Source: Botryllus schlosseri
Taxonomy: Eukaryota
NCBI GenBank assembly: GCA_051294905.1
Contig: CM119373.1
Span: 1,986,001 to 2,050,000 of the forward strand
DNA: 64,000 bases
Direction of reading: 5' to 3'
Shown: piece after piece, positions 1,088 to 56,968 of the stretch
Numbering within the stretch: the first letter of the stretch is position 1
Layout: each line of letters opens with the position of its first letter
Translations under genes and position numbers: made by a program
The notes under the pieces: model-generated
The model's input: the letters and a program-made list of their open reading frames with translations, nothing else
What the model was told of the DNA's origin: nothing
Database searches by the model: none

Positions 1088-1147
1088 AACTTGACTTGAC
1101 TCGTGACTTGACTTGACTTGACTTGTCTTGACTTGACTTGACTTGAC
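1088..1147. repeat. (GACTT)n microsatellite, short allele
   Basis: ~60 bp, within a repeat element starting cagtgttgggatgactcgagtc at ~297. Confidence 0.9.
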
Positions 1148-5678: not shown

Positions 5679-5846
5679 TTGCAAAGGCTCAGTATCATCG
5701 ACAATTCAATGAATGAAGATGGATATGAAATACTCGTTCACATTCTGAAGCTGTCAGATTGCAAGGTACTGGTGCTCCAAAATTGTTGTCTCACCAAGAC
5801 TAAGTTGCAAGGAGTATTGAACGGATGTCGGGATCAAAATATCCAG
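5679..5846 (+). CDS. Internal coding exon type A1: two RI/NLR-like leucine-rich repeats (56 aa, phase 0-0)
   Basis: Acceptor cattttag|TTG, donor CAG|gtgcgt, 168 nt open. LQRLSIIDNSMNEDGYEILVHILKLSDCKVLVLQNCCLTKTKLQGVLNGCRDQNIQ fits LxxLxLxxN/C twice. Confidence 0.8.
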
Positions 5847-6506
5847 GTGCGTCATCATGAACAATCCGTGATATCCAAAAAGACATGTCATCTTACGATT
5901 CGAAATTGTTCGTCATCCTACTTCGCCTCAAATCCATGTAACATAAAATCGTTCACCATTTATTCTATCGTTTACCATTACTCGGCCATGTATTCCATGA
6001 AGCCAATTAAAATGACAGCATGTAACGAAGTTTATTTAAGCGCTGTTAACGAAACGACCGGTGGACGGTCATATTATCAATATATGTTATAGGATAATAA
6101 CCCACGTTAGAAATCTAACCACCAATGCCGAATGAGTAACGAAAATCAATTTAGTGTTTGATGTTTGACTCAAATGCACACGGGGCCAATTTTCAAATTT
6201 TTGACCACCCCGCGGAACACGGCGTCAATATGGGTATTCAATGTATGTTCAAGTATGTCGTATTTGACGAGGTGAAATTGTACTATTGGTCGGAATAGCA
6301 AATTGAGATTCCGCAAATATAGTGAACTTATGATTTACTACTTATTTTACCAATTTACGCGCGGCACGAATGAAAACCACATTCACAAATATTTGACTAA
6401 AATTGTCGTTGTACTAGGCAGGGAGTACGCATCATTTGTCACAATTATGAGAAATAGGCACCGTAGCCGAATCTAGGTTTGGGGTACCATATTGATAAGT
6501 GTAGGC

Positions 6507-7985
6507 CAGGGGTAGGCAAACCCCGGCACGCGTGCCATTTGTGCCACGCCAAATGATTTCACGCAAACGACATATTGATACCATGTTTTTGCAAAAAGTG
6601 AAACAGAAGTTTTCAAAACGTGAAAGGCTCGTAGGCGATCCAAAATTATTATTATTATTTCACATTTTACAGTGGTGCTTCTCGCCTTTTCCAGGCTATG
6701 TGCACCACGACACGAATATTTGGAATGTTCATAAGTCTTTGTTTTTGTGGTAATCTTGGGGACGACTTCTTCATTCTTTCGCACATCCAGACGTCAGTCT
6801 CTCTCGCACCCATGCGTCCCCGTCGAATTCTCTGCTGCCGACTTCTAGGACGGCTCACTTTCAATCTGGGCTTTTCAATGCACTGTAACTGCGGTGAGGT
6901 CGGCAATGGGTAGCCCAGAGAAACCTCCGACACATAGAGCCTGATGTGTTAATTATGTTATGGGAACCCCCAATAAATAGATAAATATATATGCATTTAT
7001 AAAATGTTTTAAAAATCTATGCATAGTGTACAGAAATGAGTCAACCGTATTAGCAGTTGTGAAAGAACGTCAACCGAATATCGTTTGAAAACGTTTGGAT
7101 GCTTTAGTCTCGGAGTGTTATTCACTGTGTAGCCTGTGGGATTGCAACTTCTGAACCGGCATTACGACGCTGGGCATCTTCACGCTATAGAATACACGAC
7201 CAAGATATAGAGTTTCGGACAACATCCGACCATGCGACTAACAGGCGGTCTATGCGTTGCCAAAATGATTGGCGGCGATAAAACCTTGAAACAAAATAGC
7301 CGCTGCATCATGGACAAAACGTTAGACATTGATATGTCCACTGGCAAAGCGCCGAAGTGACCAGCGCCGAATTGCCAGCGCCCGCAGCTTGAGCCGCACG
7401 GAAGATAATGAGCCCCGTGTCGAAATGCGAATCGTGTTCGTCTCTCGGAAGTAGAGTCTGGTGTGCACGCGATTCCATATCTTGAGCAACGACAATCTTT
7501 ACCGTTCGACTGCGACTGCCGACAAATCTAGTGTCAGACCGAACTTAATGTGACACCAAACCGATTTGAATGAGACTGTGGGGAGGGGGGAAACACTTTT
7601 CATCATCATCAGACCATATCATCGTAGCTACACTGATTGACCCGCCACTTACTGGATATGGTAACAAATATAGTGGACTTGGAAACGATCCAATCAACCG
7701 CAGAAGATCGATCATTGCCCAATGGCGCGACAGAAAATAAATTATGTAAATGTCGCGTAGGCCTACATATAAGCGATAGGTCGGGTGCGGTAGTGTCCAA
7801 AATTCAATCCCTTCAAGACCAATCAAGAATTGCCGTCGTGACGAATGGCGTTGCCAGGTTGGTGGTATTCCTTGCTGCTTGAAACGTTAAATAATAATAA
7901 ATTCAATGTTTGGCACGGAAACTAGTAAAAAATTGACATTTTTTGACATTTTGGCACGCTGCACATAAAAGGTTGCCGGCACCTG
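6507..7985. mobile_element. Non-autonomous hAT-type element (with internal repeat fragments)
   Basis: Termini CAGGGGTAGGCAA ... TTGCCGGCACCTG; 8-bp TSD gtgtaggc/gtataggc; empty site 'aagtataggctattg' at ~28751. Confidence 0.8.
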
Positions 7986-10900
7986 GTATAGGCTATTGAT
8001 CTTGTCATTGCCCAAGTCAAAATAAAACAGCGTTGGATTTCACTTTACTGGTGTCACAGCGGTGGAGCGTGCCGCTGCGGTATTTGCCATCTTTAATCGG
8101 CCATAAAGCTATGGATTAAGGGTTCAAAGATGCAACTGAGTGCACATTAAGGGGGAAACAGCATGCTAAATGTTGATATAACAACTTACGTCGATAGCGA
8201 AATACCATGTCACGAGCTTATCATCTAATACGATCCCCTGGTCACGCGAAAAATAATTTTTGCGTCCAGGTTATAAACATGTCACGACACTCCGAGTTAC
8301 TCGGAGTCGACTCGAGTCATTTTCACTTTTTATCACCGAGTCATTCTGACTAATTCAGCGAAAGGTCGCCTCCAACTCCAAGTCACATTTTTCAGTCTCG
8401 AATCATATACGGTTCATGTTTTATCATCAAGATTAGAATATTCTATGTAATAGCAGATCTTCCACCGCATAGTAGCGTTTGAAAGTGATGCCATATAGCG
8501 AACTTTAATCAGTAGTTGTATGTTTTTTTGGCAAATTTAAAGGAAATGATAACTTTTCAAATCTGTCAAAAAGAAACGTTGCACTGAGCTGCTTCCAAGT
8601 ATCGCCTCCTTGGAAATCCAAAATTTTGACGTGGCCGAGCAAAATGTCCTTGTGGGTCGCGTGTTCGGGACCCAGGCTTAGATCATACGGGTTACCACTA
8701 TCAAAACTACTGCTGGTGTAAATAGAGAAAGTAATGCCTAGCTTTGGCATGACGTTACTGGATTATTGCAAATTAATCGTCAAATATGCGGCAATACAAA
8801 ATTGACGATTTTGGACCGAAAAGTTAGCATTTCACCACACGCATGTCCGTTCTCTAAGGTTGCTTGTAAAATGCAAATTAAGACGGACGGAGCTATGTCG
8901 AACAATAGCAGAGAAATCTAGCGTACCGCCGTACATGCAGTGTGACATAATGCTTATTCTTTATGCGGAATGCGGTCACTAAATGTCGCTAAAAAGTCGC
9001 TGGTAATAACAACATGTCAATGCCTACGCGCGAATTTGCGTGCTTTTTGTGCTACCAAGAAACACCATGTCGATCCAAAAAAACTCCTAAAACCGAACTA
9101 ATCTCCATGCTAATATATTTTCATCATTTCTGGCCTTCAATATTATTCACGACACATCGCACCGTAGATATCTTGAAGATTGCGTTCTGCAACGAACTAT
9201 AGCACTGGTCAACAAAATGAAAAATAAAAACAATTGGCAGAACATCTAGGAACTGCTATAGGGTTTTCAAGGTTGCTGATGACGAATAGTACATTTGTTT
9301 TGCCAGATTGACTTGCCCACTAGACTTGAGTCTTTTCTCTGGGTCATTTGCTGTCATCATTCAAGAGTTCGGCTCTCTCTTTGTCTGAGCCTTTCAATGC
9401 ACTGTATTTATAGCGGGATCGGAGATGAGGAGCCCAGATAAACCTCCGACACATAGAAACATGGCAGAGCCGAGACTCGACCCGCCGTGACAGCAGTGTT
9501 TAACCAACTGCGCCACTCGCTTCCCCGTGACATAAATATATCCTTATTCTTATGACGCGGTCACATGTTAACGTATAGCTTATACAGACGTGGTGGTGTA
9601 CTAGCGTTACAGCTATAGGGATCGCTCGCATGATTATAACGATAATGAAGACGTCATAGTTCAGTCGTAACAAATGATCGATCGTGTTCTGTATTCTAAC
9701 TCTAATCTTTTTAATGCTGTCTGTTGATTCGTGCGTAACCTGAATAATTCCGACTTTCAGCAGCATCGGATTATTCGCACGTTTCCATACCACTGCTTCA
9801 CACCTACAGAATAGTCTGCCGATCACTGTCGCAACAAGAACCACAATTATACTCATTTATACGTTCATTGTATTTATTACTCTGAAATCAAACTCTTAAC
9901 AAAAACACGTACAATCGTTTCATTAATTTTTTTATCGTCACCAAAATAATTCAGTTATTCCTTGGTTGAAAAATTTTGAGCTCGTTTCGTCAAGAATGTT
10001 ATAGTATGATCTTCAAACACATCTGATGTTTTACTCTGTAACTGTTTCCCAGTCACGGAAAATTCATCCGGTTCCATGAATTCGATTATCCGAGGTTTTA
10101 GTGGTCCGAAACCTAGTGAAACATGAAAATGAGTCTGGCGCCCCCTATTTTAAGGACTGTAGTAAAAACCAATGGGTAAGTGGTCGAAGTCCGCTTTCGG
10201 GTTAGGAATTCACTATTAGACCTCTCGACTAATTAACGATATAATTTTTCATGCTGTTTTCGAGATCTAATCCAGGTTGTTATAACAACCATCGGGTAAG
10301 GACTACGGGCTCATGGCATTTGGTTCGAGATCGATGGACACATCTCGAATTCTCCTCTGCGATTGGCAATACGGTGAATAAAATTGTATTGGTTTCGTTT
10401 TATTGCTTTGTCTGACCACTTGATCAAATGAGAATGTGGTAGAGATTTGCTCACATTACATTTAGTGCTGCTCTTAGTTTCAACATGAATGCGGGTAACA
10501 ACACTCAGCAGTATCACCCTTTATGATACGATGAAGAAATATTCTGACGACATAATTTTGTAGCTCTCAAATACAAGCATATTTAATTACTCGTTTTTAC
10601 CAAAAAGCTACAAAACACCTTTATTGTACAAAGGACATCACTCTCGAAAGTTGTTCAGTAGCCTTTAGCGCCTTTACGATTTAGGCACGCAGTGCGCTTC
10701 AGGATAAAATACCTAGTTAAAAATATTTTATGGAAAACAACCCGAGCTATCAGTATAAGTATCAGTTTATTATTATTTTCATAATTTCAAAACACCACGA
10801 AACTGTGATAAAATGAGGGGATAGGAAGATGTCAAAACGACTTGGAGTAGCTAGCGTGAAAGGAGTGTTATAACGGGGAATTAGCAATCCAAAAGTACGC

Positions 10901-11251
10901 CAAATTCATTTTACATGATTTAAAATTAATCACTGCATTCATGAAAACAGGGGTCGGTTGATATTTCGCGATGAGCGCAACGAAAAACGTTGTGAATGAG
11001 CAGATTTTGTCGAATGTTAGTTTGCAATGAGAAGTCAGCAATAATCATATGTCCATACTACACCATATGCTGCGAGACAATTTTCTTCAGCGGCCCAACC
11101 GCCACCAGAGCCCAATGCTCCCTATTTCGTCCCCTGAGCGTTTCCGCCCCTTCAAAATTCAAGCCGCCCCCTGGTAGGCGCTGGAGACAAGGTAAAGAAC
11201 CACTGATCTAAATAATCACGAACTATATTAGTAAAATTACGTCTCCTCCAG

Positions 11252-11299
11252 CTTCATAAACTGCTCATCTTCGACAGAACAATGCTCCCGGGCGCATAG
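11252..11299 (+). pseudogene. Truncated type-B LRR exon ending in TAG
   Basis: ctcctccag|LHKLLIFDRTMLPGA*; homologous to the 5' end of exon B. Confidence 0.6.
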
Positions 11300-13462
11300 A
11301 AGAGTAGCGTACGGCCAGTGTTGCTGAATACAAATTCTGTAGGCGGAATTGGACTCTGAGCTGTCGTAGGAATTCGTCAGAAACAACATATACAAATGCG
11401 CGTGGTCTTATTCGTGTAGTTTTTGCGCTATCACGAAGCAACTAACGATCCAGATTAAACATTTAAATTCTAACCTTATCCAAGTCTATATCATGGTCTC
11501 ATGCTCAGTCTTCTAGAATGATAGATACTTTTGTGCTCAGCGCTTCTTTGGAAATTGTATCAATCATCACACCCATCTCTGATCTGAACATATAAAGTGT
11601 CATTACCATGTTTTCATCTGATATCAAACTAATCTAATTTGTGAATTGTTCTTATGATCTAATTTTACTTCTAATCTAATTTATAAAATGTTTCTATGCT
11701 CCAATTTCAATTCCAATCTAATTTATGAATTGTACTTATTCTCTAATTCGAATTCTTATCTAATTTGTGAAATGTTCCTATACTTTAATTTTAATTCTAA
11801 CCTAATTTATTGTTTTTCTGAAAATGCCTATTAGACCGCGGCATTTTGCAGCGAGTCCCTCTCGAACAGGGAAATTCAGAGCCAAGCCGCCATCGCATTA
11901 CTTACACCGTACATAATTAGTAGTTGTTGTGCGACGAATAATAGCCTACCGGCATGGTAGATTGTTCGTTTGTATTCTGGAACAATTGTGACGCTTATCG
12001 TCCAATCATGTTATTTGCGCCATGATAATGAATGTTGCAATGTTCATCGATCTTTGCCTTTGGAACTCTTTTCGGAGTACTTCCTATCACGCGTCCATTG
12101 ATCATCGATATCTATCTCGTTTGCATGCGTCCTCTTCAGTGTCTTTTGCTGACGATTTTAGAAGCTCGACTTCAATAGATCAATTTGGGGTTTTCTTACG
12201 GTACTGCATACGCAGTGAGGTCAAATACAAATGAATCGATATTGGGACTGGATAGACATGTAGCTAGGTGAAAGACTATCTCATCCTAAAGATTGATTGT
12301 GGGGAAGCTCAGGCCCGTTTTCTAAGCGTCTCGGTCTTGGGCTTGGCGGTGTCGGGTCCATTGTACGTCATGGCAATATGCCTATTCATACTAGCTGACT
12401 CGCCATCGATGCAATGCTGTTGCCATCGTTGAAGCCATTTCCGCTATCGCGAGGAATAGTGTTGTTGAGCACAGACGAATAGGTTTATTTAAAATAACAA
12501 CAATATTAATTTGAAAGTGAAATCATTTTCCGCATTTCAAAATGCTTTATTCGCCTTTATTCAAATTCACAGATCAGATTGCCTGCCTCAAAATACAGAT
12601 TCGCGGGCCGCGTGTTGATGACCTCTGATATAGTGCAAAACGAGCAAAGCTTGATATACAGACGTTAACCAGTCTCTTTGCTATGAGACTCCACTGTGAT
12701 TTGATATGTACTTAAATTTTGCTGCATTTATTTCTCATTCAGAATTCCATTCAATTTCCAAGTTTTTCCGAATTCAGTAGCCAAAGTCTAATTGTAATTA
12801 TAATCTAATTTGGAAATAACTGTGTTAATCTAATTCTAATTCTAATCTAATTTGGAAAAATCGTATAGCTCTAATTATAATTATAATCTGATTCGGAAAA
12901 GCTAAAAATTTTCTAGTTGTCCTAGTCTGTCGCGTAAGTGGCGTCTTATAAAAGCCTATGAGTGGACCGTGCTGCAGGTCAGCAGCTACGAAATTTAGAT
13001 GAAGCACATTGTCCTGGTGTAAATGACCATAGTAGTCGACAAACCCCATGAATACCTCAAACCAAACAAACAAGCGACTAAAAAGGGAGCATAGAAATAC
13101 GCCAACTTATATCGTCGTTAGTGCCACTGATTTAGCGCTCCATAACTCTACTCAACAGACAAATCATCGTATTTTTGCCAATTCCATTGTTCGGGAATAA
13201 AGTCGTTGCTAGAATATAAACACCATGATCCGTGATATGATTTGATGCACTATTAAGTATATATGATCGATACTAGAATATTCACGTGAAAAATAAGGAC
13301 ATGTGGAAACATTTTGAACCGAGTTGACTGATGGTCCGGCTCGTGACAGATTTGAAGGTATAAATCCGACCCGCGTCGCCATTTGAGTTTGACAACCCTG
13401 CTTCAAGCTGAATCGCCATAACAAGATAGCATAATGGTATGATCCACGGCTGCAACACCAAT

Positions 13463-15894
13463 GGGAGACATTCACAAACCACTTGGGGCGCCAACACCAC
13501 GCCCTATCGTCCGTAGTAAACAAACAAAACTTACAGCTATATTCGCTCGAAACCAGGTCAGCCACTGCCTGTTGGATTCGGGTAACAGAATTAATGTCTT
13601 GTATGTACGGAGTTTGAACATATTTACGACTGATGATTGAGTTCAGTGCAATTTATGAATTGTCAGGTTACTTCGTGTACCGATATTTCATTTCCAGAGA
13701 GTGACGTTTGAATATTAGCTGAGTGACATATATATTTCATTTTAATAGACTGTCATCTATCTACATTATAAAATGACACGATATTGCTGTGTACCTGGTT
13801 GCACGAGTCGGATTGGTGGTCATTTGATTCCTAAGTCACCAGGGAAGCTGATGAAATGGAGAGAAGCAATTAATAGATCAAACTCCAAAACGAAACAGCT
13901 TTGGACAGAGACATTGGGCAGAGGGCAGAGACATTGCTTGCTATGGTCATTTTCTTCCAAGTGATTATATGAGCCGAACATGAAACTTGAAAGACAGGAG
14001 GCAGTCCCATCAGTCTTTCAGCATGATAAAAGAACGCCACTAAAAACTGTCAGAAAGACAAACAATTCGAACCCATTTACACCAGAACCTACTGAAATAA
14101 TTCATTCCGGAACACATAGTGACCAGAAATTTCAAACAGACTCGGAAAATATGGGCATTCAGTGCCAACTAGGTGCTTCAATGCCAGCTTTCAGCTTAGA
14201 AAATATCAAGGATGATATTAAGCAGTGCATGGTATTTTACTGGATTTGATGACATCAAACAGTTTCTGCTTTTAAAGGACATTGCAATGTACGATGTTCA
14301 TCTATTGGAGTACACCTGTACGTTGTGTTCAAATGAAGAGCAAGTTTTTTCTGACACTAATCAAGCTCTTGATCATCAACTGCTTGGTATTGTTTCAGAA
14401 TCAACAGCTTCCCGCATTATTAATGCTTGCTTGGATCAAGCATATGTACTGTTTATCATCAAAATTACTAATTTCGCCTTCAAAACAAGTAATATTGGAT
14501 CCCATGCCAGATGATTTAAAAAACTATATCCATCAACGAGATAATTATTGACTGTACAGAAATCCCAATTGAGAAGCCATCTGATTTCCATGCACACTGC
14601 ACAGTCTGTTACATTCTCCACTTGAAAGAATGGAAATACCATGGAAGTATTAATTGGTAATGCACCCACGGGTGCTGTCTCCTTCATAAGTGACTGCTAT
14701 GGTGAATCCGTTAGTGACCGCAGCATTATTGAGCAATCTGATTTGCTGGCCGAAGCCAGAGCAACGTTTGAAAAGGGCGACAGTATCATGGCTGATAAAG
14801 GATACCTACTGCAAGGTTTGTTTGCACCATTCGATGTGAAAATCAACACCCCTACTTTGATGAAAGGCATGACTCAGCTCTCTCAGGAACAGCGGGTAGA
14901 GGATTACTCCATCTCCTCAAAACATGTACCGTACACCTTGTAAGGGTTACTGGTTATGCAAGGACATTCAAAATCATTCAAAATGTCTTGCCTTACAATC
15001 TCTTGCATTTGAAAAATGTAATAGTCTTTATCTGCTTTATGATTTTTAAATTTAGGAAAGACATACTTTGATATAGTCCTACATAATAGCATTTGATGCT
15101 TTTATTATTTTGTGTTTGCTGAAGCAGACTTGGTTAGTGATAATGATTGATTACTATTAGTGTTGCATGAATTTTCTTGCTCCCACTTCAATATTGATGC
15201 CGCCATAATAAACCGGAATATCACTGTACTGGATTTGATGACTGAACAGAAAACATATCACTACCTAGAGTCTAGACGCAAGTTTTGTTTTCATTTACTA
15301 AACGAGATACATAAAAACTGCCAATATACAGGTAGACTACGTAATCAACAGAAAGAATCATGGAATTTGGAAATACCAATAATCACCACGACGGCATGAA
15401 CGGTTTTGCTCAAAAAATCGTATTCAAAGCTACATTGCATTCAGCAGTTTTCAGTTTTTCGTCTTGCGGTAACACAATCTTGACCACCAAAAAAGGACGC
15501 CAATACATTTCGTAGAACTTTTGCAACTTCAGAATCCTAAATTTAGGAACAAATTATGGGTCAAACTCTATATCTTCCATGTGCACATTACGAAATGTAT
15601 GCATAAAACAACATATAGTTTCATACAAGCGCAAGTCATTTGGCCTTGTACTTGGGCATACCATCTGTGATTTTTTTTCAGATAATAGCCATCTGCAGCA
15701 ATCATCAAATATTGAAAATACTTTCAAGGTGTTATTAGGTCATCCTTTACCGTGTATGGCCACTTGACTTCCAACCAGCTACGCTAGGGATGTCAAAAGA
15801 CAACAAATCAAGACGACGTTTCTTTCGGTATCCAATGTAAGCAATGGATCACTAGGACGAGGTTTTGGCGCCCCTAAGTGTATGAATGTCTCCC
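13463..15894 (+). mobile_element. ISL2EU-type (Harbinger-related) DNA transposon, decayed
   Basis: AT target duplication (13461-62 and 15895-96). ~34-bp imperfect TIRs beginning GGGAGACATTCA. Empty site 'acaccaattggttgcg' at ~4685 and ~27021. Confidence 0.85.
13773..14990 (+). pseudogene. THAP-domain + HTH + DDE_Tnp_4 transposase pseudogene
   Basis: MTRYCCVPGC...W...CYGHF...AVPSVF (THAP), YFTGF, FLTLIKL, IIDCTEIPIEKP, VLIGNAPTGAVSFISDCYG..SD and IMADKGY, spread over several frames with stops. Confidence 0.85.
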
Positions 15895-16880
15895 ATTGGT
15901 TGCGGGTTCGAGTCTGACCCAGGTCCACTCCAGAATTTCCAGCCAAGCGTTACAGATTTATCTAGGGCTAGGCTCCTCTTCATTCACCAGATCGGCGGTA
16001 GTTGTTTCTTAAAAATGCCTAGAAGTGGACCGTGCTATGAGTGCTCTCAATATTGCAGGTCCTGGGTATTTTCTGCACAGCGATCAATGTATATTTTTAA
16101 AATTAAATGCCTCTTGGCTCTGCATTCAGGACAGTTTATTTTACATGCAATCGAAGTTTAAATCATTGGTAAAACAGAGTATATATTGCACGACATTAAA
16201 AGCTGGTGATTTTGTTTATTATAGCATTTGAGATTCTATATAGTTGCTTAGTGACGTATAGACCGAGTGAGTGTCTCACTTCGATTTCCCAAAAGTGTTT
16301 ATGAATACTGGCTGAGGCCGTACAAACCCTATTACTGTCGTTATTGAGTGATCACTAGTAAATTAGTAATCATAAAAACTGCATGAAGGTATGCTTTAAA
16401 GCTGCCAAACACTGTAGAACTGCCGTCTCCGTGGATTCAATCGAACAGATTTACATGCTCATATCCTAATGGCGACAGCATTTTGAAAGAGGCAGAGATT
16501 GCCATCATTCCAGTCATCAGAACTCTACGTCGAAATCGGCCCCACATATTTGTTCCTCAGAAGGCCGAGTTTCAAATATTGCCAGGGAACTAGCTCGTAG
16601 GTAATTTTACAAATCAATATTGTGTTTGATTGTACTCGATCAAATGAAATCTAAAACATTCTATTCGACTCGAGGATCAATTCTCGATTCGGAATCGTAT
16701 CTTCCTAGCCCTGGATGTCGCCCGGCCACGATTGCAATATTATTTTACTTGAAATGATGGCGAAGCAATCGTAGCAGAGTAATGTGATACTAATAGTATT
16801 TTACAGTTTATTGACAGGAATTTCAATTTCATTTTCGAAGGCTAATGAAAGTAATGTTATACGATATTTTATCATTTTAG

Positions 16881-17048
16881 TTGCAAAGGCTCCTTATCAT
16901 CGACAATTCAATGACTGAAGATGGATATGAAATACTCGTTCACATTCTGAAGCTGTCAGATTGCAAGGAATTGGTGCTCGAAAATTGTTGTCTCACCAAG
17001 ACTAAGTTGCAAGGAGTGTTGAACGGATGTCGGGATCAAAATATCCAG
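16881..17048 (+). CDS. LRR exon type A2 (56 aa, phase 0-0)
   Basis: Same splice sites as A1; LQRLLIIDNSMTEDGYEILVHILKLSDCKELVLENCCLTKTKLQGVLNGCRDQNIQ. Confidence 0.8.
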
Positions 17049-24733: not shown

Positions 24734-24781
24734 CTTCATAAACTGCTCATCTTCGACAGTACAATGCTCCCGGACGCATAG
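24734..24781 (+). pseudogene. Truncated type-B LRR exon ending in TAG
   Basis: ctcctccag|LHKLLIFDSTMLPDA*. Confidence 0.6.
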
Positions 24782-38206: not shown

Positions 38207-38266
38207 AACTTAATTCACGGAGTACATGTATTGGTTTGTTGTTCAATGAAAACATTACAGCTGAAT

Positions 38267-44400: not shown

Positions 44401-45550
44401 AGTGGGCCGTGCTGCAGGTATTGTTTGTTTGTTTTGGGGTATTCATGGTGTTTGTCGACTACGATGGTCATTTACACCAGGCCGACATTCTTTTTATTTT
44501 CCGTAACTGCCGACTTATAGCACGGCTCACCTCTAGGCTTTTGTAAGACACCGCTGACGCGGATGAGGTGGCGAGGAGGAGCCTAGGTAAACCTCCAACA
44601 CTTGGGTATCGAGATTCCCGTGCTGCAGGTCAGCAGCTACGAAATTTAAATGAAGCACATTGGCCTGGTGTAAATGACCATAGTAGTCGACAAACCCCAT
44701 GAATACCTCAAATCAAACAAACAAGCGACTAGAAAGGGAGCATAGAAATACGTCAACTGATATCGTCGTTAGTGCCACTGATTTAGCGCTCCATAACTGT
44801 ACTCAACAGGCAAATCATCACAATTTTGCCAATTCCATTGTTCGCGAATAAATTCGTTGCTAGAATATAAACCCTATGATCCGTGATATGATTTAATGTA
44901 CTATTATGTATATATGATTGATAATAAAGTATTCAAGTGAAAATACGGACATGTGGCAAAACTTTGAAACGAGTTGACAGATGGTCGGGCCCGTGAGAAA
45001 TTTGAAGATTTTAATCCTGCCCGAGTAGCCATTTGAGTTTGACAACCGTTCTCTAAGCTTAATTGCGATGACGAGATAGCATAATGGTATGATCCACGGC
45101 TGCAACACCAATTGGTTGCGGGTTCGAGTCTGACCGAGGTCGCCTCCAGAATTCCCAGCCAAGTGTTAGAGGTTTATATAGGGCTAGGCTCCTCTTCATT
45201 CACCAGATCGGCGCTAGCGATTTCTTAAAAAAGGCTAGAAGTGGATTTTGCTATGAGTGCTCTCAATATTGCAGGCCCTGAGTATTTTTCTGCACAGCGA
45301 TCAATGTATATTTTTAAAGTTAGATGTCTCTTGGCTCTGCATTCAGAACAAGTCGTTTTACATGCAATCTAAATTCAAATCATTGGTAAAACGGAGTATA
45401 TATTGCACGACATTAAAAGCTGGCGATTTCGTCTATTATAACATTTGAGATCGACCGAGACCGAGTGTCTCATTTCGATTTCCCAGAAGTGTTTATGAAT
45501 ACGGGCTGGGCACCGTTTAAACCCTAATATTGTCGTTATCGAGTGATCAC

Positions 45551-46400
45551 ATATTAAAATGGCTATCCGGACCACATATTAAAATGCTCCATCTCTAGGG
45601 TATTGAAAAAATCGGATACAGGTCCAAAATATGGCCCAGAAAAATGCCCGCCATTTTTGCCCCTACCTTGGCTAGGTAACGTGTCTAGCCGTTTTGAAAA
45701 GCTTATTAAATCGGCTGTTCACCGTTGCTATTACAGCGTTAACACGCATGTAGTGTACACGACGAAACCCTTGTTACCCAACTCTCGAAAAGATGTACTT
45801 CCTGCCTTTGATGCAAGTAATGTTGTTTACCAATACAAGTACCACTGTGATAGTAGGTATGTAGGATGTACATCTCAAAGATTGTTTGAACGTATTAAGC
45901 AGCATATCCCAAAATTGTTTCGGTCAAAAACTTGCGCAAATGATCGCACGGAGCTCGCACGTCAGTGCAAATTGGCTGCAAAAACAGACTGCTATGATGA
46001 TTACCAAGTATATGTTTCGTCAATTGGTCAGCATAGGAGTGAAAACCTTGCCTGTGCACAGCACTATGATGACAATATGTTCACTGTCATTGCGCGTGGT
46101 AGGTCTGTGTTTCATTTAAAAGTGTTGGAGTCTACTATTATTCAGTTGAGCAAACCTATTTTATGATAACCTACAAATTTCTCATTAGTGCGTGTTGTTC
46201 CGTGCGTGTAATTGTTTATTTACAAATTGTGCTGCTACTATAGTACCGTATGTCCGTATAGGCCTACTTCATAGTTTGTTATTGTTGCCATTGGTACAAT
46301 GCGAATTTCATGGTTTGTGATTTTGATTGTTGCGTCATACTTTGCCTTTTTGGTTTTGATTTTAAATCTGTTTAAATCCCTTTAGTGTGCCGATAACTCT
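45551..46400 (+). mobile_element. Penelope-like retroelement 3' fragment (linker + GIY-YIG endonuclease)
   Basis: GYPDHIL...LPWLG...KD...SNVVYQYKYHCDSRYVGCTSQRLFERIKQH...SSIGQH...LKVLES.II....P.L (ORF 45603-46166). The 3' boundary is approximate. Confidence 0.8.
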
Positions 46401-47579
46401 TGAAAATATGATTTAATGTACTATTGTGTATATATGATTGATAATGGAGTATTCAAGTGGAAAGTAAGGACAGGTGGCAAAATTTTTAACCGAGTTAGCT
46501 GATAGTCCGGCCAATGACAGATTTGGAGGTTTGAATCCGACCCGCGTTGCCATTTGAGTTTGACAACCCTGCTCTAAGCTGGGTCGCCATGGCGAGATAG
46601 CATAATGGTATGATCCACGGCTGCAACACCAATTGGTTGCGGATTCGAGTCTGACCGAGGTCGACTCCAGACTTCCCAGCCAAATTTTAGCGGTGCTAGG
46701 CTCCCTTCTTGCGGTTTCTTAAAAAAAGCCTAGAAGTGGACGTGCTATGAGTATTCTCAATATTGCAGGCCCCGGGTATTTTCTGCACAGCGATAAATGC
46801 ATATTTTTAAAATCAAATGCCTCGTGGCATTGCATTCAGGAGAGTTTGTTTTACATGCAATCGAAATTCAAATCATTGGTAAAACAAAGTATATATTGCA
46901 AGACATTAAAAGCCGGTGATTTTGTCTATTATAACATTTGAGATTCTATATAGTTGCTAAGATGTAAAGACCGAGTGTCTCATTTCGATTTCCCAAAACC
47001 GTTTATGAATACTGACTGAGTGCCGTACAAACCTTAATACTGTCGTTATCGAGTGATCACTAGTAAATCATGAAAACTACATAAAGGTAAGCTTTAAAGC
47101 TGCCAAACACAGTAGACCTGCCGTCTCCGTGGATTCAGTCGGACGGATTTACATGCCGATGTATTACTGGCGACAACTTTTTGAAAGATGCAGAGATTGC
47201 TATCATCCCATTGTACAGAATTCTACGTCGAAATCGGCCCCATATATTTGTTACTCAGAAAACAGAGTTTCCAAATAATGTCAGGGAACTAGCTCATAGG
47301 TAATTTTACAAATTTCTATTGTGTTTGAGTTTATTCGATCAAATGAAATCTAGAAGCTTCTACTCGACTCGAGGATCAATTCTCGAATCGGAATCGTATC
47401 TCCTGAGCCCTCGATGTCGCTCAGCCACCATTGCAATATTATGTTACTTGAAATGATGGCAAAGCAATCGTAGCACAGTAATGTGATACAAATAGTATTT
47501 AACCATTTAATGACAGAAGTTACAATTTCATTTTCGAAGGCTAATGAAAGTAATGTTATACGATATTTTATCATTTTAG

Positions 47580-47747
47580 TTGCAAATGCTCGTTATCATG
47601 GACAATTCAATGAATGAAGATGGATATGAAATACTCGTTCACATTCTGAAGCGGTCAGATTGCAAGGAATTGCAACTCCAATATTGTTGTCTCACCAAGA
47701 CTAAGTTGCAAGGAGTATTGAACGGATGTCGGGATCAAAATATCCAG
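47580..47747 (+). CDS. LRR exon type A3 (56 aa, phase 0-0)
   Basis: Same splice sites; LQMLVIMDNSMNEDGYEILVHILKRSDCKELQLQYCCLTKTKLQGVLNGCRDQNIQ. Confidence 0.8.
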
Positions 47748-50700
47748 GTGCGTCATCATGAAAAATCAGTAATATACAAGAAGACATGTCCCTAACGATT
47801 CAAAATTGTTCGTCATCCTACATCGCCTCAAAAAGTATGCAGCATAAAATCGTTCACCGTTTATCCTGGCGTTTACCAATACTCGTCTGAGATTCGAATA
47901 CCGCAGGCGTTTCGTATTTTGCAACACAGAGAAGCTTGTACATTTTTGAAATAGTTAACGACGCGACAGGGTGGATATTATCAATATTGGAATATTCTTG
48001 ACATAAATCTAACTGGTGAGGCCGCTTTAGTGTTAGATGATGCGGTTCCATGCACCTGTTGTCGTGGCATGGAATTTGGGAATTCTAGACAAACTGTTGC
48101 AGATGGAAATGCGGACAGTAATTTGCGGCTTTGGTAAGGCGTCCCTGATCTACAGTGAAGTAATCGGCAGAAAAGGGCCAATGTTAAATTTAGGATTTCA
48201 GGCCGCAAATTGGACACAATTTCATACTTTTAAGTTGCTTATAAATTTGGGTGGAGATAGTTATGTCAATCACTGATTGTCCAATTGGGAGTTCAAGAAA
48301 TAACAGCATGCAATAAAAGTGACTAATAACAATTGGGCCACAGCATGATGCATCATTATATATAACTTGCCCCCCCCCCCCCCCCCGGTTCGAAGATACC
48401 CCTCGATCAACTCTACTGGTGAATGGGATCACATGGGCTGAGAAAGGATTCATGCTTAATAGGAAGATGTGAAACTATTAACATTAATGACGAAATTCAT
48501 TAGTGAATCTGAACAGCTTCTTGGAGGTACATAACTTCAATATCCGATTGAATAGTATATTCATACTGAAATGAACCCGAATATTTTCGGCTGACACTCG
48601 TTAGGGGTAATCGTCAGCAACTAGTAGAGAATTCAAAAGAACAGCGTATATCAACACTCGTAACACAAAATATGACGTCACCAGCAGCATTAGTGAATCT
48701 GGAAGTTTTTCGTTCCCATAACGTGACCACTCGCAATTTGGGTGCGTGTAGTAAGCGGATATGAAATAATATAGATAAGTCCGGAGCTCATCGGAAATGG
48801 ACATGGATCTCTCAATATTGGTAGTTGGCGTCCAGCTAGTTCATCGCGACTAAGCCCTGCAATGCTGCCGTAGGCTACATGATTAATCGATATGCAGCCG
48901 TGAATAGTAAAAAGGTTGGCGACCCCTTGGAAATGAATTCCAGCTAAGCTTTTCATTTAAGAGAGCTCGTTTCTCATGCACTTGAAATTCAAATAATTCA
49001 AACTTTTTTTTATAATGGTGTCGAAGCATATACACTTATACAATCTTCCAGCGATTTCAATACCAATTGACAATATATACCAGTATTTTAATAATCTGTA
49101 ATATGTATTGTGCTGCATCCGGAATATTTCGCGATCGGTATTTTTCGTTACATGTCGCTACATCTCTAATCGCAAAACCATGTAATCCATTGTAAAATGC
49201 CAACATGTAACAAGGTTTTTGTTATCGCTGGTAACGAAACGACCGGCGAACGGTCATATTATCAATATCTATTATAGGATAATAACTCATGGTATAAATC
49301 TAGCCGACTGAGTGAAGAAAATCGATTTAGTGTTTGATGCTTGACTCATATGTACTCGGGATCCAATTTCCTAGTTTTTGATCACCCCGCTGGCCACAGC
49401 GTCAATATGGGTATGCAATGTATTTTTAAGTATGTCGTATTTGACGAGGTGAAATTGTTCGATTGAAGGTTAACCGAAATAGCAGACTGAGATTCCACAA
49501 ATATCGTGACATTGTGATTTACTAGTTTTTAGCAATTTATGCGTTGCACGAATAAAAACCACATTCATAAATATTTGACTAGAACTGTCATTGTACTTGA
49601 CAGGGAGTACGCATCATTTGTCAAAATTATGAGAAATAGGCAACATAGCCGAATCTAGTTTTAAGATATCATATTGATAAGTATAGGCTTGATTATGTCA
49701 TTGCCCAAGTCAAAATAAAACAGCGTTGGATTTAACTTCACTGGTGTTACAGCGGTGGAGCGTAGCACTACGGTATTCACCCTCTTAAATCGGCGATAAA
49801 GATATGGATAAAGGGGTCAAAGATGAAACTGACTACACATTCAGGGTGCAATAGAATGCTCACTGTTGTTATAACAACTTGCGTCGATAGCGAAATACCG
49901 TGTCACGAGCTCAATTCCAATCAGTCGAAGCGGAGTTATTGCCGTCGCAAAATTTTGGATTTGAATAAAATAGTATTTACGGTGACCGATTCTTTAATCA
50001 TTTATTACAATTGTGCCCACTGTAAATACTATTTTATGCAAATCCAAATTTGTCGACATCAATCACTACGCTACGGCTGGTTTGAATGGAGCCAAATTTG
50101 GTGGACATCGTTTCTATCGACAACCTTACAATTTCATGGGTGAACAGAAAATTTTGAATTTTTTTTTAATAATTCTTATATAATAAATAAAAAAACTTTC
50201 TTCTCCTGTAGCAATGCGGCTACTGGTTGGAATTGAACCAAATTTGGTGTGTAGGCTTCAATTCGGTAATCTAACAATTTTATCAAGTAGCCAGTAGAAT
50301 TTGAAAGAAAAAGTCATTTTTGAACACCCCTACTGTACAGTGTACAGACATTTGCTATTCCCATGCGCATAAGATGAACTATGATTTGATATTAACGGGT
50401 GTGAGTATACACCATGGCACAAGAGACCTGAACGTACCTCATACTTATACCGCGGTATAAATCGAGTGCAATATTTTAATCCAAATTTTGCATGCACGTA
50501 GGATATATGACCTCGATCTCATTATGACTCAGGTTTTGTTTTCATGTACCACCCTTTTCGGCCCATTAGGTGCAAATACACACTATTTTCGCTAAAAGTG
50601 CACTCGAATAAAATATGCATGTTACGCATAAAACGCGTAGTATATTATGCCCATTAGAAATCGGTGTCTACTCTACCAGTTGTAAACCCAAATGTACGAA

Positions 50701-51907
50701 CGGGCAGTGCATTCATCGATTCGATATCTCTAAAATTCCATTGTGAGTCAACAAACCTGACTAAAATAGGAGGTCACTGCAAATTGGTCGATTGTCGCTT
50801 CATTGCGAAACATTCATTATTTTCAATGAAACATTCTTTCTTTGACGATATAATCAGTGTTTTTCCAAATCGTAACGACCGTAAAAGCATTTCAGCACTA
50901 TTACACGCGGCATTTTTCATTTCATCGCCGATATCCACTAATTGCATATTAATATGAAATTCGCTAAAATATTCATTTATGCGAATGAGAATCTAGAGTT
51001 AGTGATCATTATGCAAAGGTGAATTGCAAAATATGGTCGGAAGTTTCATCGCCCTTATTCTTGAATAGGCAACACAACTGTGAGAAGTCCATCCGTCTGA
51101 AGTATAATTATGCGGTCGTTTTCACAATAAAATATTTTAAATTGATAATAATACAAACATCAAGTCAAGTGTTTAGATGTGCAAATCTGAATTTATTAGC
51201 TATGAAAATTCTGTAACCGAAAATATATAAAAAGGAACGATATTTATCATGTTCCCAGCTATATTCGGATGAACTCTCGCAACTTTCGTATCTGATATCT
51301 TAAATTGGCTCATTAAACAAACGCTCTGTACGAATTCACATTCATATGACGATAATCAACATATGCGACTCGTAGCTTACATTGTCGTAAACTTGCTTAC
51401 CTCAACCAGCCCTCTTGTATATAATTTAAATCAAACGAATATCGTTCATACGTTTATAATTGTATATCGTTGATAAGTAGGTGGGTAGGGTATTGAACTA
51501 TATCAATTTTAAACATTCTGAGGTTTCGTATGTTGTCCTCTATTTTGGCTGATATTTAAAGACTGGCTACATCGCCATACTTGCGTAGTTGAGCAGTTCT
51601 GCGTATGCGTGAGCGATACAGCGCCTCTTCATTCCATTACTCCTCGCCACTTAATCCGCGTAAGCCGTGACTTGCGCAAAGTCTAGAAGTGGGCCGTGCT
51701 ATAAGTCGGCAGTTGACGAATAAATATGAAGAATATTGGCCTGGTGTGAATGGCCGTAGTAGTTGACAAACACCATGAATATCTCAAAACAAACAAACAA
51801 ACTATTTATTCGTTCGTCGATTCCGAATAAATGGGTACTTCATCTGTATTTAAAACAGTTAGCAAAATGTAATGACTTTGAATCATGTCCAGTACGTTGA
51901 AATTTCA

Positions 51908-52307
51908 ACTTGACTTGACTAGTGACTTGACTAGTGACTTGACTCGTGACTTGACTCGTGACTTGACTTGACTTGACTTGACTTGACTTGACTTGACTTG
52001 ACTTGACTTGACTTGACTTGACTTGACTTGACTTGACTTGACTTGACTTGACTTGACTTGACTTGACTTGACTTGACTTGACTTGACTTGACTTGACTTG
52101 ACTTGACTTGACTTGACTTGACTTGACTTGACTTGACTTGACTTGACTTGACTTGACTTGACTTGACTTGACTTGACTTGACTTGACTTGACTTGACTTG
52201 ACTTGACTTGACTTGACTTGACTTGACTTGACTTGACTTGACTTGACTTGACTTGACTTGACTTGACTTGACTTGACTTGACTTGACTTGACTTGACTTG
52301 ACTTGAC
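51908..52307. repeat. (GACTT)n microsatellite, long allele
   Basis: ~400 bp, mostly perfect. Confidence 0.95.
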
Positions 52308-53039
52308 CCGAGTCACCTTTGAAAATCAAGTGACTTGACTTGACTCGAGTCAAAATGAATTGGCAACAAAACGTTTCCATGAATCTCGACGAAGTCACAA
52401 AATCAATGTAAATACAGGCCAATGGCACACAAAGGCAGACAAACGTTTACAGGGGATCCAAATATAAATAAGTAGTGGGACAGTATTGAATGCTTACACA
52501 TCGGAATTGTATACTATATTGTTCCACATAATTCCATCGTTAATAATTCAACGGTATGAAGTGTATGCTCGAGCAGTATAGCTAACCCGTCGCTTCCACA
52601 ATTGCATGTCTTAAATTGATATTTATCGAAACTTCAAGTCAAAAATATGGATGTGCGAACCTGAATCTAGTAGCTATGAAATTCTAAATCCGATATTGAT
52701 CGAATGAACCCTGCAAGATTGATATCTGAAATCGGTTCATCAAACAAACGGTATGTGCGAATTCACAATCGTAATATCGAGAATCAACATCTGTGACTTT
52801 TCAGTGTCTTCTGATGGGAGTGCAATTCTTCAAAAAATATCACAAACCATAACGTATTCTTTATTGCAGTCTTACCATAGCGGTACCCTATATAAAAAGA
52901 TTGATGTGGCAATTATACAATTCATTTTTTATGTCGAAACAATAATACACCGTGTCGACCGGCACTGATATCTTAATGTCTAATATAATGAAAATCGAAA
53001 CCACTAAGAATAATATTGGTAAAATTTCGTCTCCACCAG

Positions 53040-53129
53040 CTTCAGAAACTGCCCATCTTCGACAGTACACTACTCCCGGGTTCTTATTATGACGTGGCGG
53101 AAATTGCAAAAGCCACCAAATGCGCCGAA
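53040..53129 (+). pseudogene. Truncated type-B LRR exon, copy of 1880
   Basis: Same sequence as 1880-1969. Confidence 0.65.
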
Positions 53130-54524
53130 GTGTGTGTACCGAACCCAATTCCAACGTCCACGTTTACGGTTTAATCTCTTGTATTCTTACCAACGCACAC
53201 TCGGGGTCAACATCCAGTTACGACTAAAAAGAGTGGTGGGATAGCGTAGTGGTGTAATCCACTGCTGCAACACCTATGGGTTACTGGTGCGAGTGCGACC
53301 AATTTCGACTCTAGAATTCCTAATTAAGTGTTGGAGGTTTAGCTAGGCTCCTCCTCGCCATCTCATACGCGTAACAGACTTGGACAACTAGATAATTCTA
53401 GTTGTCTAATTTCACTAAATTAGAGCGAAATAGCAGTAATCGAATTCTAATCTAATTTATAAAATTTTTCTATGCTCCAATTCTAATTCTAATTCTGATT
53501 CTAATCTAAATTGAGAAACGTTCTTATACTCTAATTTTAATTCTAATCTAATTCATTGTTTTCCTGAAAATGCCTATTTGACTGCGGCATGTTGCCGCGA
53601 GTCCCTCTCGTACAGGGAAGTCCAGAGCCAAGACGCCATCGCATTACTTGCACCGTACAGAAATAGTAGTTATTGTGCGACGAACAAGAGCCATACTGGC
53701 ATAGTAGCTTGTTTGTTGGGTTTCTTGAACAATTGCGAGGCTTATTGAATAAGCATGTTATATGCGCCATGATCAGAAATGTTGCAATGTTCATTGATCT
53801 TTGCCTTATGAACTCTTTTCGGACTACTTCCAGTCACACACCCATTCATCATTGATATCCATCTCGTTTGCATACGACCTCGTCAGTGTCTTTTACCGAC
53901 GATTTTCGAAACTCGACTTTAATTGATCAATCTGGGCTTTTCTTACGGCACTGCATACGCAGTGACGTCAGCTACTAACGATTCGATATTCGGGCAAGCC
54001 AGACATGTTGCTAGATGAAAGACTATCTCATCCTAAAGATTGGCTGTGGGGACACCCTAGCCCGTTTTCCAAGCGTTTCGGCGTCGCGTGCATTCTACGT
54101 CATGGCAATCTGCCTATTCATACCAGCTGACTCTCCGTCGATGGAATGCTGATGCCTCCGTTGAAGCTATTTTCGCTATAGCGAGGAATAGTGTTGTTCA
54201 GGACAGACGAATAAGTTTATTTAAAACTACAACAATAATAATTTGAAACTGAAATCATTTTCGCATTTCAAAATGCTTTATTCGCGTTCTTCCAAATTCA
54301 CAGATCAGATCGCCGGCCGCAAAATACAACCTCGCGGGCCGCCTGTTGATGACCCCTGGTATTGTGCAAAACGAGCAAAGCTTGATATACGGACGTTAAC
54401 CAATCTCTTTGTTATGAGACTCCATTGTGATTTGATATGAACTGAACTTTTTGCTGCATTTATTTCTCATTCAAATTTTCATTCGATTTCCAAGTTTTTC
54501 CGAATTCAGTAGCCAAATTATGAT

Positions 54525-55310
54525 GCTAATTATAATCTAATTTGGAAAAAAGCTGTGTAGCTTTAATTCTAATTCTAATCTAATTTGGAAAAATTGTATA
54601 GCTCTAATTCTAATTCTAATCTAATTTGGAAAAAGCTATGTAGATGTAATTCTAATTCTATTATAATCTGGAAAAAAAGCTGTGTAGATTTAATTCTAAT
54701 TTTAATTTAATTTGGAAAATATGCATAGCTCTAATTATAATTCTAATATAATTTGGAAAAAGGTGTGTAGATCTAATCTGATTCTAATCTAATTTGGAAA
54801 AAGCTGTGTAGATTTAATTCTAATTTCAATCTAATTTGGAGAAATTGTATAGCTCTAATTATAATTATAATCTAATTTGGAAAAAGCTGTGTAGATCTAA
54901 TTCTAATTCTAATCTAATTTGGAAATAACTGTGTTGATCTAATTCTAATTCTATTCTAATATGAAAAATAGCTGTGTAGCTTTATTTTTAATTTGAATCT
55001 AATTTGGAAAAATTGTATAGCTCTAATTATAATTATAATCTAATTTGGAAAAAGCTGTGTAGATCTAATTCTAATTCTAATCTAATTTGGAAATAACTGT
55101 GTTGATCTAATTCTAATTCTATTCTAATCTGAAAATAAGCTGTGTAGCTTTATTTCTAATTTGAATCTAATTTGGAAAAATTGTATAGCTCTAATTATAA
55201 TTCTAATCTAATTTGGAAAAAGCTGTGTAGATCTAATTCTAATTCTAATCTAATTTGGAAATAACTGTATAGCTCTAATTCTAATTCTAATATAATTTGT
55301 AAAAGCTTAA
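54525..55310. repeat. AT-rich minisatellite, paralogue of 3355-4140
   Basis: Same unit. Confidence 0.9.
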
Positions 55311-56800
55311 AAATTCTTAGTTGTCCAAGTAAGCGGTGTCATATAAAAGCATGAGTGGGCCTTGCAGCAAGTCAGCAGCTACGGATTTTAAATGAAGCAC
55401 ATTGGCCCGGTGTAAATGACCATAGTATTCGACAAATCCCAAGATTACCTCAAAACAAACAAACAAGCGACTAAAAAGGGAGCATAAAAATACGCCAACT
55501 TCTATTGTCGTTACTGCCACTGATTTAGCGATCCATAACTGTACTCAACAGGCAAATCATCGCATTTTTGCCAATTTCATTGTTCGCGAATAAATTCGTT
55601 GCTAGAATATAAACCCTATGATCCGTGATATGTTCTAATGTACTATTATGTATGTATATAATGATAGATAATAAAGTATTCAAGTGAAAATACGGACATG
55701 TGACAAAATCTTGAAATGAGTTGACTGATGGTCCGGCCTGTGAGAGATTTGAAATTGAAGGTTTGAATCCGACTCGCGTCGCCTTTTCAGATTCACAATC
55801 CTGCTCTAAGCTGAATCGCCATGACGAGATAGCATTATGGTATGATCCACGGCTGTAACACCAATTGGTTGCGGGTTCGATGCTGACCGAGGTCGACTCC
55901 AGAATTCCCAGCCAAGTGTTACAGATTTATCTAGGGCTATGCTCCTCTTTATTCACCAGATCAGCGGTAGTGGTTTCTTAAAAAAGCCTAGAAGTGGATC
56001 GTGTTATGAGTGCTCTCAATATTGCAGGCCCTGAGTATCTTCTGCACAGCGATCAATGTATATTTTTATAATTGAATGCCTCTTGGCTTTGCATTCAGGA
56101 CAGTTTGTTTTACATGCAATCGAAATTTAAATCATTGGTAAAACAGAGTATATATTGCACGACATTAATATTGCACACATCGTCTATTATAATATTTGAG
56201 ATTCTATATAGTTGCTGAGTGACGTAAAGACCGAGTGAGTGTCTCACTTCAATTTCCCAAAAGTGTTTATGAATACTGGCTGAGTGCCGTAGAAACCCTA
56301 TAGTACTGTCTTTATTGAGTGATCATTAGTAAATTAGTAATCATAAAAACTGCATAACGGTATGCTTCAAAGTTGCCAAACACAGTAGACCTGCCGTCTC
56401 CGTGGATTCAATCGGACAGATTTACTTGCCGACATCCTGATGGCGACCACTTTTTGAAGGAGGAATAGATTGCTATTAATCCAGTTAACAGAATTCAACG
56501 TCGAAATCAGCCAACACATATTGTACTCAGAGGACCGAGTTTCCAAATAATGTCAGCCAAATAGCTCATAGGTAATTTTACAAATTTCTGTTGTGTTTGA
56601 GTGTATTCGATCAAATGAAATCTAGAACATTCTACTCGACTCGAAGATCAATTCTCGTTTCGAAATCGTATCTTCCGAGCCCTCGATTTCGCCCAGTCAC
56701 AGTTGCAAGATTATGGTATTTTAAAGTCTACTGACAGTAATTTCGATTTCATTTTCGAAGCATAATAAAAGTCATTTTATCCGATATTTGATCATTTTAG

Positions 56801-56968
56801 TTGCAAAGGCTGATTATCGTCGACAATTCAATGAATGAAGATGGATATGAAATACTCGTTCACATTCTGAAGCGGTCAGATTGCAAGGATTTGCAACTCG
56901 AAGATTGTTGTCTCACCAACACCAAGTTGCAAGGAGTATTGAACGGATGTTGGGATCAAAATATCCAG
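56801..56968 (+). CDS. LRR exon type A4 (56 aa, phase 0-0)
   Basis: Same splice sites; LQRLIIVDNSMNEDGYEILVHILKRSDCKDLQLEDCCLTNTKLQGVLNGCWDQNIQ. Confidence 0.8.

Follow-up and report, generated by a model that had tools for sequence, protein, structure and literature searches.

Analysis of a 64,000-nucleotide stretch of the Botryllus schlosseri genome (positions 1986001-2050000 of contig CM119373.1, here called C3, in a genome of 495.5 Mb; GC content about 40 %) has established that this stretch, hereafter the window, holds an array of exons that encode leucine-rich repeats (LRRs) and that vary at the x positions of the LRR strands. We regard it as reasonably probable that the window is an internal LRR-coding portion of a giant NACHT-LRR gene unit whose exon copies have been diversified by positive selection. 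Membership in a family of NACHT-LRR receptors (NLRs, receptors with nucleotide-binding and leucine-rich repeat domains), duplication of the exons and positive selection on them are each supported by the evidence described below; four sampled RNA-seq runs gave zero depth over three exons.

Exon copies and selection on their strand positions

Four copies of an exon that we term type A lie on the forward strand of the window, where tblastn and DNA alignment place them at 5679..5846 (A1), 16881..17048 (A2), 47580..47747 (A3) and 56801..56968 (A4). Each is 168 nt long, contains 56 codons in open phase 0/0, is preceded by ttttAG and is followed by GTGCGT; in A1, for example, the AG acceptor is followed by TTGCAA and the exon ends in ATCCAG before the GTGCGT donor. 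The proteins encoded by A2 and A3 are identical to those of further copies at C3:1820251 and C3:1812552, respectively. A sequence-only reading of the window had reported four 168-nt exons that keep frame and splice sites and that differ at 11 of 56 residues, with seven of the differences on the ten x positions, four on the other 46 and only four codons varying synonymously. The same coordinates were recovered with AG/GT borders and open frames, and a recount gives identical figures, with variable residues at 3, 5, 7, 12, 25, 30, 32, 34, 35, 40 and 51 and purely synonymous variation at codons 4, 31, 41 and 46. Codon 32 reads GTG, GTG, CAA and CAA from A1 to A4, as that reading had also described.

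The exon product follows the pattern LxxLxIxDNxM...CKxLxLxxCCLT, which corresponds to two 28-residue LRRs of the ribonuclease inhibitor (RI) type. A PDB search with a profile of 31 rows (30 type-A copies and the B-type exon of the window) places RI first, aligned in repeat register with an E-value of only 0.015. An AlphaFold2 model of the exon product, with a predicted local distance difference test score (pLDDT) of 77, has beta-strands at residues 3-6, 30-33 and 52-55 and helices at 13-25 and 40-48. Taken alone, this model of 56 residues is not large enough to give a clear fold match: Foldseek returned nothing at E up to 0.001, and VIA gave Z-scores no higher than 5, LRR proteins being interspersed with Rossmann-like rows. 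Pfam assigned no family to the 56-residue exons at E up to 0.1 and no LRR family to the homologous proteins of Styela clava at E up to 0.01; short divergent repeats often score below the Pfam LRR models. A model of eight modules of an S. clava homologue (pLDDT 93) has 16 alternating strands and helices, the strands occupying module positions 3-7 and 30-34, and its best PDB matches are NLRP2, RI, NLRP9 and NLRP3 (Foldseek E 2e-9 to 1e-6), with NLRP14 also matched. Motif, PDB profile match, exon model and homologue fold thus all agree with the earlier proposal that the exons encode LRRs. In LRR strand geometry, residues 4/6 and 31/33 face the core and residues 3/5/7 and 30/32/34 face the concave surface, and the models obtained here are consistent with this arrangement.

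A DNA search of the B. schlosseri genome gave 41 matches, and 30 exon copies were extracted from the 30 loci returned; all copy counts are lower bounds, as the genome search scores the best candidates only. An open frame and AG/GT borders are present in all 30 copies, one of which has an in-frame 6-nt deletion, and the mean column identity of the alignment is 84 % (31 aligned rows). Of the 30, 27 lie within C3:1,487,510-2,152,361, a tract of about 670 kb in which every copy is on the forward strand, and the remaining three are on the reverse strand at 33.0-33.3 Mb of the same contig. The selection analysis used 25 core copies, leaving out these three and two divergent copies at C3:1487510 and 1551675 (79-83 % identity) that belong to the first gene unit of the tract; the codon models used 24, from which the copy with the 6-nt deletion was also left out.

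The class of ten x codons was set a priori from the LRR consensus and not from the data, and 520 well-aligned flanking intron sites of the type-A copies served as the neutral proxy. Amino-acid entropy among the 24 core copies exceeds 1.5 bits only at positions 3, 5, 7, 30, 32, 34 and 35 (the next highest value is 1.35 bits, at position 12), and these seven hypervariable positions all fall in two predicted beta-strands. The concentration of variation on x positions, which had been read from four copies, therefore strengthens with more copies and is not due to chance (Fisher p 4e-6). There are 22 unique sequences among the 24 core copies and 22 different seven-residue combinations among the 25. 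Nucleotide diversity (pi) is 0.134 in the introns, and at codon positions 1 and 2 the seven sites reach 0.416, the ten x codons 0.299 and the other 46 codons 0.027 (0.068 at position 3 of the latter). Nonsynonymous diversity at the seven sites is three times the intron diversity, and not one of 20000 random intron blocks was as extreme as the seven-site excess or, in the other direction, as the deficit in the 46 codons. The five-fold deficit in the framework codons shows that constraint at the protein level acted on the exons as their introns diverged by about 13 %.

On the intron tree, the number of parsimony steps per site is 1.08 for introns, 4.86 for the seven sites, 3.50 for the ten x codons and 0.32 for the other 46 codons. 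Codon counting on three topologies gives ratios of nonsynonymous to synonymous change (omega) of 4.0-4.3, 2.8-3.0 and 0.31-0.39 for the same three codon classes. A maximum-likelihood (ML) codon model (GY+F1X4, intron topology, 24 copies) puts the omega of the ten x codons at 5.26 (twice the log-likelihood difference 13.9, p 2e-4), that of the seven sites at 11.6 and that of the other 46 codons at 0.38 (p 6e-4); for the whole exon omega is 0.93, which is not different from 1. The suggestion of positive selection is thus upheld by diversity, codon counting and ML alike, with omega well above 1 at the strand x positions and purifying selection on the framework, and there is a clear footprint of selection for diversity at the predicted ligand-contacting residues. 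Simple relaxed constraint is rejected, as omega exceeds 1 at sites that were chosen a priori.

Anatomy and duplication of the probable gene unit

An open reading frame (ORF) at C3:1929367-1930815, on the forward strand 57 kb upstream of the window, matches the Pfam families NACHT (E 3e-13) and NOD2_WH (E 4e-4); in the 200 kb upstream, which contain 98 ORFs of 100 aa or more, it is the one that carries both. It reads through a short open intron of about 126 nt, at a position where its paralogues have an intron of 2-5 kb (C3:1423307 to 1427954 and C3:1697900 to 1700111). The second NACHT exon ends in phase 1; the next LRR exon (the D exon, at about C3:1,936,893) accepts phase 1 and ends in phase 0, and it is followed by the C exon (C3:1938009-1938176), which is 168 nt long in phase 0/0 like all type-A exons and the B-type exon. 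The splice phases consequently chain from NACHT through D and C to the A and B exons, a linkage that is seen on DNA only. The sequence-only reading had suggested an immune-receptor locus and a search upstream for a NACHT exon; such an exon is present with compatible phases, and the assignment as an NLR locus is supported. An immune-receptor role is suggested by this family membership. A bacterial or viral origin is rejected on account of the splice sites, the NACHT-LRR architecture and the animal transposons.

The NACHT exon has two paralogues on the contig, at C3:1,422,162 (85 % identity, intact) and C3:1,696,710 (74 %), and a protein search with the NACHT ORF gave two unnamed matches only. 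Genome-wide there are at least 224-236 NACHT-like candidates, and all 94 that were scored exceed the Pfam cut-off; dense clusters lie on contigs C1 (23.4-24.8 Mb and 39-41 Mb), C10 (11.5-12.6 Mb) and C16 (1.2-1.9 Mb). For a tunicate, such an NLR repertoire is large. The NACHT exon is closely followed, downstream, by a 177-bp tandem satellite with eight consecutive stop-ended open frames of 174 nt (L045:5639-7051 in a local numbering in which L045:3367 is C3:1929367).

The 670-kb tract consists of three tandem units with 5, 7 and 15 type-A exons, the window falling in the third, where type-A exons are spaced 4-31 kb apart; C3:1.41-1.786 Mb and the sequence beyond 2.05 Mb were characterised through search coordinates alone. 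Copies from the second and third units interleave on the tree, which indicates that large blocks have been copied between units as well as within them. Within the window, self-BLAST reveals that positions 1..64000 are a patchwork of segmental duplications, 85-99 % identical and in forward orientation, that carry the exons. Examples of such block pairs are 1-5603 with 52251-56708, 16793-23924 with 56713-63864, and 24868-27787 with 42952-45871. Self-BLAST, genome search and tree together support the earlier claim of exon-cassette duplication, with the copies having arisen through tandem segmental duplication. Exon capture by transposons was rejected as a source of the copies, given that all of them share one orientation within one 670-kb tract.

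The 'A/B array' of that reading does not alternate between A and B exons: the 264 kb examined contain 14 type-A exons and one intact B-type exon, with the other B-type pieces truncated. The intact B exon (window 31923..32090, forward strand, 168 nt, phase 0/0) has a ccAG acceptor before CTTCAG and ends in GTCTTG before GTAAGT. Three forward-strand B' copies, at 1880..1969 (B'1), 36210..36299 and 53040..53129, retain about 110 nt of the B-type sequence; B'1 represents the 5' part of the B type, runs from an AG to a GAA followed by GTGTGT, and is either a 90-nt single-LRR exon, a function that B' could still have, or a truncated relic. Two forward-strand stubs at 11252..11311 and 24734..24793 keep the acceptor and about 45 nt before an in-frame TAG and unrelated sequence, and are dead relics. 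The truncated forms have themselves been propagated, which points to few independent truncation events.

From these observations we propose a gene unit in which the NACHT/winged-helix exon at C3:1,929,367 comes first, two unique LRR exons follow, and one 168-nt exon then recurs in at least 15 copies as far as C3:2,152,361 or beyond; two sister units would lie upstream in the same orientation. Tandem duplication, likely by unequal crossing-over, would have repeatedly copied blocks of 4-25 kb that each comprise an exon with transposons and satellites. With exactly two LRRs in phase 0/0 per exon, the frame survives any gain or loss of a copy. Purifying selection would thereafter have kept the framework of hydrophobic, Cys and Asn residues, and positive selection would have driven seven outward-facing beta-strand residues apart, giving 22 surfaces in 25 copies. 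If all copies are spliced into one mRNA, the product would be expected to act inside the cell as a receptor; its RI-type LRR solenoid would be very long, with a concave face made up of a mosaic of diversified patches, and its ligand would presumably be non-self.

The window is also rich in satellites and transposons. A complete Harbinger-type DNA transposon at 36541..39604 is intronic cargo and does not belong to the receptor; on the forward strand it carries an intact DDE_Tnp_4 transposase ORF of 439 aa (36887-38206; E 4e-33), on the opposite strand a MADF/Myb-like ORF (39047-39271; MADF E 1e-5), and at the insertion borders 23-nt terminal inverted repeats that are 87 % complementary. It is absent from two paralogous blocks (around window 2214 and 53374), and was thus inserted after the duplication; it may still be active. 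The intron between A1 and A2 contains an older, broken Harbinger/THAP-type element (13749-14943), in which a degenerate THAP-domain ORF (E 2e-4) is followed by a DDE_Tnp_4 fragment (E 6e-15). A 202-aa ORF at 45558-46166 has no Pfam match, and we presume that it resembles a GIY-YIG/Penelope-like element. The sister block at 27474-27827 is without about 2.85 kb equivalent to 45872-48724, from inside this ORF past the A exon, so that an A exon was either lost there or never present. An (ACTTG)n microsatellite occupies the same place in three paralogous blocks (1089-1147, 35225-35477 and 51908-52307) with 11, 49 and 78 copies, which implies rapid expansion after duplication. Additionally, a 23-bp satellite of 33 copies with strong GC skew (29294-30023) is flanked by inverted arrays of a 16-bp repeat (29063-29138 and 30315-30391) and is absent from the paralogous block at 49981. 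ARAGORN found no tRNA in the window.

Competing explanations

Several observations weigh against a functional giant gene. Four same-species RNA sequencing (RNA-seq) runs, sampled at 6-13 % of each (about 33.5 million reads) and compared with window 1-20000 at 95 % likeness, give zero depth in the bins holding B'1, A1 and A2 in all four, with dispersed repeats in the same 20 kb being covered; for these libraries this is a genuine negative result. No RNA run was listed as containing the exon when sequencing runs were searched with its 168 nt, and a word search found no protein of at least 99 aa that contains it. The B-type partner exons are mostly truncated relics, and the NACHT exon of the middle unit (C3:1,696,710) carries two TAA stops. 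The introns, of 4-31 kb and filled with transposons, are far longer than the 0.6-1.6 kb that separate LRR matches in paralogues elsewhere on the contig. No death-fold exon turned up in the 23 kb upstream of the NACHT exon (104 ORFs of 45 aa or more), nor did tblastn with the S. clava Death-NACHT protein detect a death domain there, a query that at about 30 % identity has low power. A genome search with the C-terminal 82 aa of an S. clava model likewise did not find a terminal exon. Some blocks that are 97-99 % identical could be haplotype duplications of the assembly. Finally, recombination inflates tree-based omega tests and the copies are clearly mosaic; the tree-free comparison of pi still gives a two- to three-fold excess over the neutral proxies.

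A separate observation from the same RNA-seq runs concerns window 9339-10005, where depth reaches about 100-400x in three of the four. All of these reads fit only partially and many have loose ends, which points to a highly expressed dispersed repeat that is possibly SINE-like (short interspersed nuclear element).

One explanation for the lack of RNA depth over three exons in four runs is that the array is dead genomic debris, in which untranscribed NLR leftovers are passively carried along in segmental duplications of a transposon-rich region and the variation reflects relaxed constraint. The truncated B-type partners in the same units and the stops in one of three NACHT exons fit this explanation, and since several type-A copies are very recent duplicates with identical proteins, their intactness says little. 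However, debris would not be expected to have framework codons five-fold less diverse than the introns of the same copies (0.027 vs 0.134, with none of 20000 blocks as low) and an omega of 0.38, nor to leave all 30 copies free of stops, frameshifts and splice-site losses despite about 13 % intron divergence. Furthermore, relaxation alone cannot produce an omega significantly above 1 at the x codons. We therefore consider debris unlikely.

A different possibility is that individual mRNAs include only subsets of the exons, through combinatorial or mutually exclusive splicing or internal promoters, such that one NACHT region is combined with many LRR surfaces. As all exons are 168 nt in phase 0/0 with near-identical splice sites, any subset would be in frame, and four isoforms, of 1337-1651 aa, are predicted for the S. 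clava locus LOC120336943. Frame-preserving LRR exons are described as a precondition for alternative splicing of NLRs in one source, which also reports skipping of a 171-bp NLRP3 exon (PMC6642158). Yet the zero RNA depth over B'1, A1 and A2 speaks against this possibility, and up to 33 modules stand in a single ORF of S. clava models, which makes constitutive inclusion of many modules plausible. Use of exon subsets is improbable.

The copy number itself could be partly an assembly artefact, with a much shorter true array expanded by mis-assembly of haplotypes or repeats. Several blocks are 97-99 % identical, a level that alleles of highly heterozygous marine invertebrates can also show. Most copies, however, are 5-10 % apart in the exon and about 13 % apart in the introns, and their insertions differ, as with the Harbinger element that is present in one unit only. 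Moreover, the selection pattern does not depend on near-identical pairs, as there are 22 unique sequences among the 24 copies. An inflated array is therefore rather improbable.

A more far-reaching idea, for which we see only a slim chance, is that the array is a library, kept in the germline, of recognition modules that can be exchanged for one another and from which cells or animals build different receptors, by use of exon subsets or by rapid turnover of copy number and gene conversion. If true, this would be an NLR-based diversity system in a tunicate, the sister group of vertebrates, and a functional parallel to fungal allorecognition NLRs and lamprey variable lymphocyte receptors (VLRs) that might bear on self/non-self discrimination if the host is a colonial ascidian. 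Least probable is that each duplicated block is its own transcription unit for a small LRR-only protein with no link to NACHT, since the large exon spacing and the presence of only three NACHT exons for 27 A exons are outweighed by exons that have both acceptor and donor without a start-codon context, by the failure to find first or last exons in 264 kb (domain scans of the 98 and 104 ORFs gave transposon and NACHT domains only), and by relatives that carry the modules in one long ORF behind NACHT.

Relatives and comparable systems

The usual description of animal NLRs is that they sense invariant microbial patterns. The giant NACHT-LRR unit that we favor would place an animal NLR family in a mode more like that of plants and fungi, in which near-identical repeats multiply and diverge only on the binding face. 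With the whole exon as the unit, receptor length and surface could change without breaking the frame. If transcripts exist, the array would make germline diversification of receptors tractable in the invertebrates most closely related to vertebrates, and a set of giant ascidian proteins now labeled as uncharacterized would gain a name and a function that can be tested. A literature search covering few subscription journals yielded no description of such arrays from tunicates or from other animals.

The closest relatives come from a profile search of 1.84 billion protein representatives, which gave 47 matches at E up to 0.001. The top five are S. clava RefSeq models, all annotated as 'uncharacterized protein' (relatives include XP_039248824.1, of 2508 aa, XP_077976009.1 and XP_077976001.1), and the short unnamed matches correspond to single exons in the genomes of other species, with the frame continuing into the intron. 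One S. clava model of 2508 aa has NACHT and NOD2_WH with 33 tandem modules in one ORF, another of 1650 aa has Death, NACHT and NOD2_WH with about 12 modules, and across the models the module is repeated 8-33 times in tandem, the top ones having 21-33 in one ORF. As in the B. schlosseri array, the modules contain two LRRs in 54-57 aa in the same register and stand in tandem behind NACHT and NOD2_WH; they are highly alike within one protein, with positions 34 and 30 among the most variable (nine modules of one type). They differ in sequence, at 23-40 % identity per module and about 30 % in NACHT, and are computed gene models. On the strength of these matches the host genome is probably that of a styelid ascidian.

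Vertebrate NLRs offer the nearest parallel in exon structure. The LRR exons of NLRP3 are exactly 171 bp and encode two LRRs, and two-LRR frame-preserving exons are given as the rule in vertebrate NLRs in the same source (PMC6642158). Vertebrate NLRP/NOD proteins and RI thus share with the B. schlosseri array both these exons and the fold, as seen in the matches to NLRP2/3/9/14 and RI. In contrast, the exons here are 168 nt (28+28 residues) in phase 0/0, occur in at least 15 near-identical copies per unit at distances of 4-31 kb, and are hypervariable on the strand face. For the zebrafish NLR-B30.2 genes, the best-studied expanded family, the LRRs are reported to be not particularly variable and selection to act on the B30.2 domain (PMC4852459).

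Fungal NLRs approach the pattern of variation more closely. Like the type-A exons, with their 84 % column identity and seven strand positions, they combine near-identical repeats with few selected surface positions; unlike them, the fungal repeats belong to the WD, ANK and TPR classes, as opposed to LRRs in separate exons 4-31 kb apart. Repeats in fungal NLRs are contiguous in one exon. In HET-E/HET-D-type NLRs the few positively selected positions of the near-identical WD/ANK/TPR repeats lie on the predicted interaction surface, and that study reports no LRRs (PMC4986451). Reshuffling of such repeats has been proposed as a quick route of diversification (PMC4986451; also PMC12222747, PMC1805685). 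In the brown alga Ectocarpus, repeat exons of equal length in phase 0 are described as duplicating and shuffling in genes for LRR-ROCO and NB-ARC-TPR proteins, with positive selection on solvent-exposed LRR residues (PMC3341825). Equal-length phase-0 exons and selection on exposed LRR residues are thus common to both systems, which differ in that the algal protein carries a ROC-COR GTPase in place of NACHT.

Diversification of LRR cassettes on the concave face is also shared with lamprey VLRs. These draw on many germline LRR cassettes, which act as donors for somatic gene assembly and are not spliced exons; PMC6642158 and PMC3341825 also allude to the lamprey system. In contrast, all 30 of the B. 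schlosseri copies have canonical splice sites.

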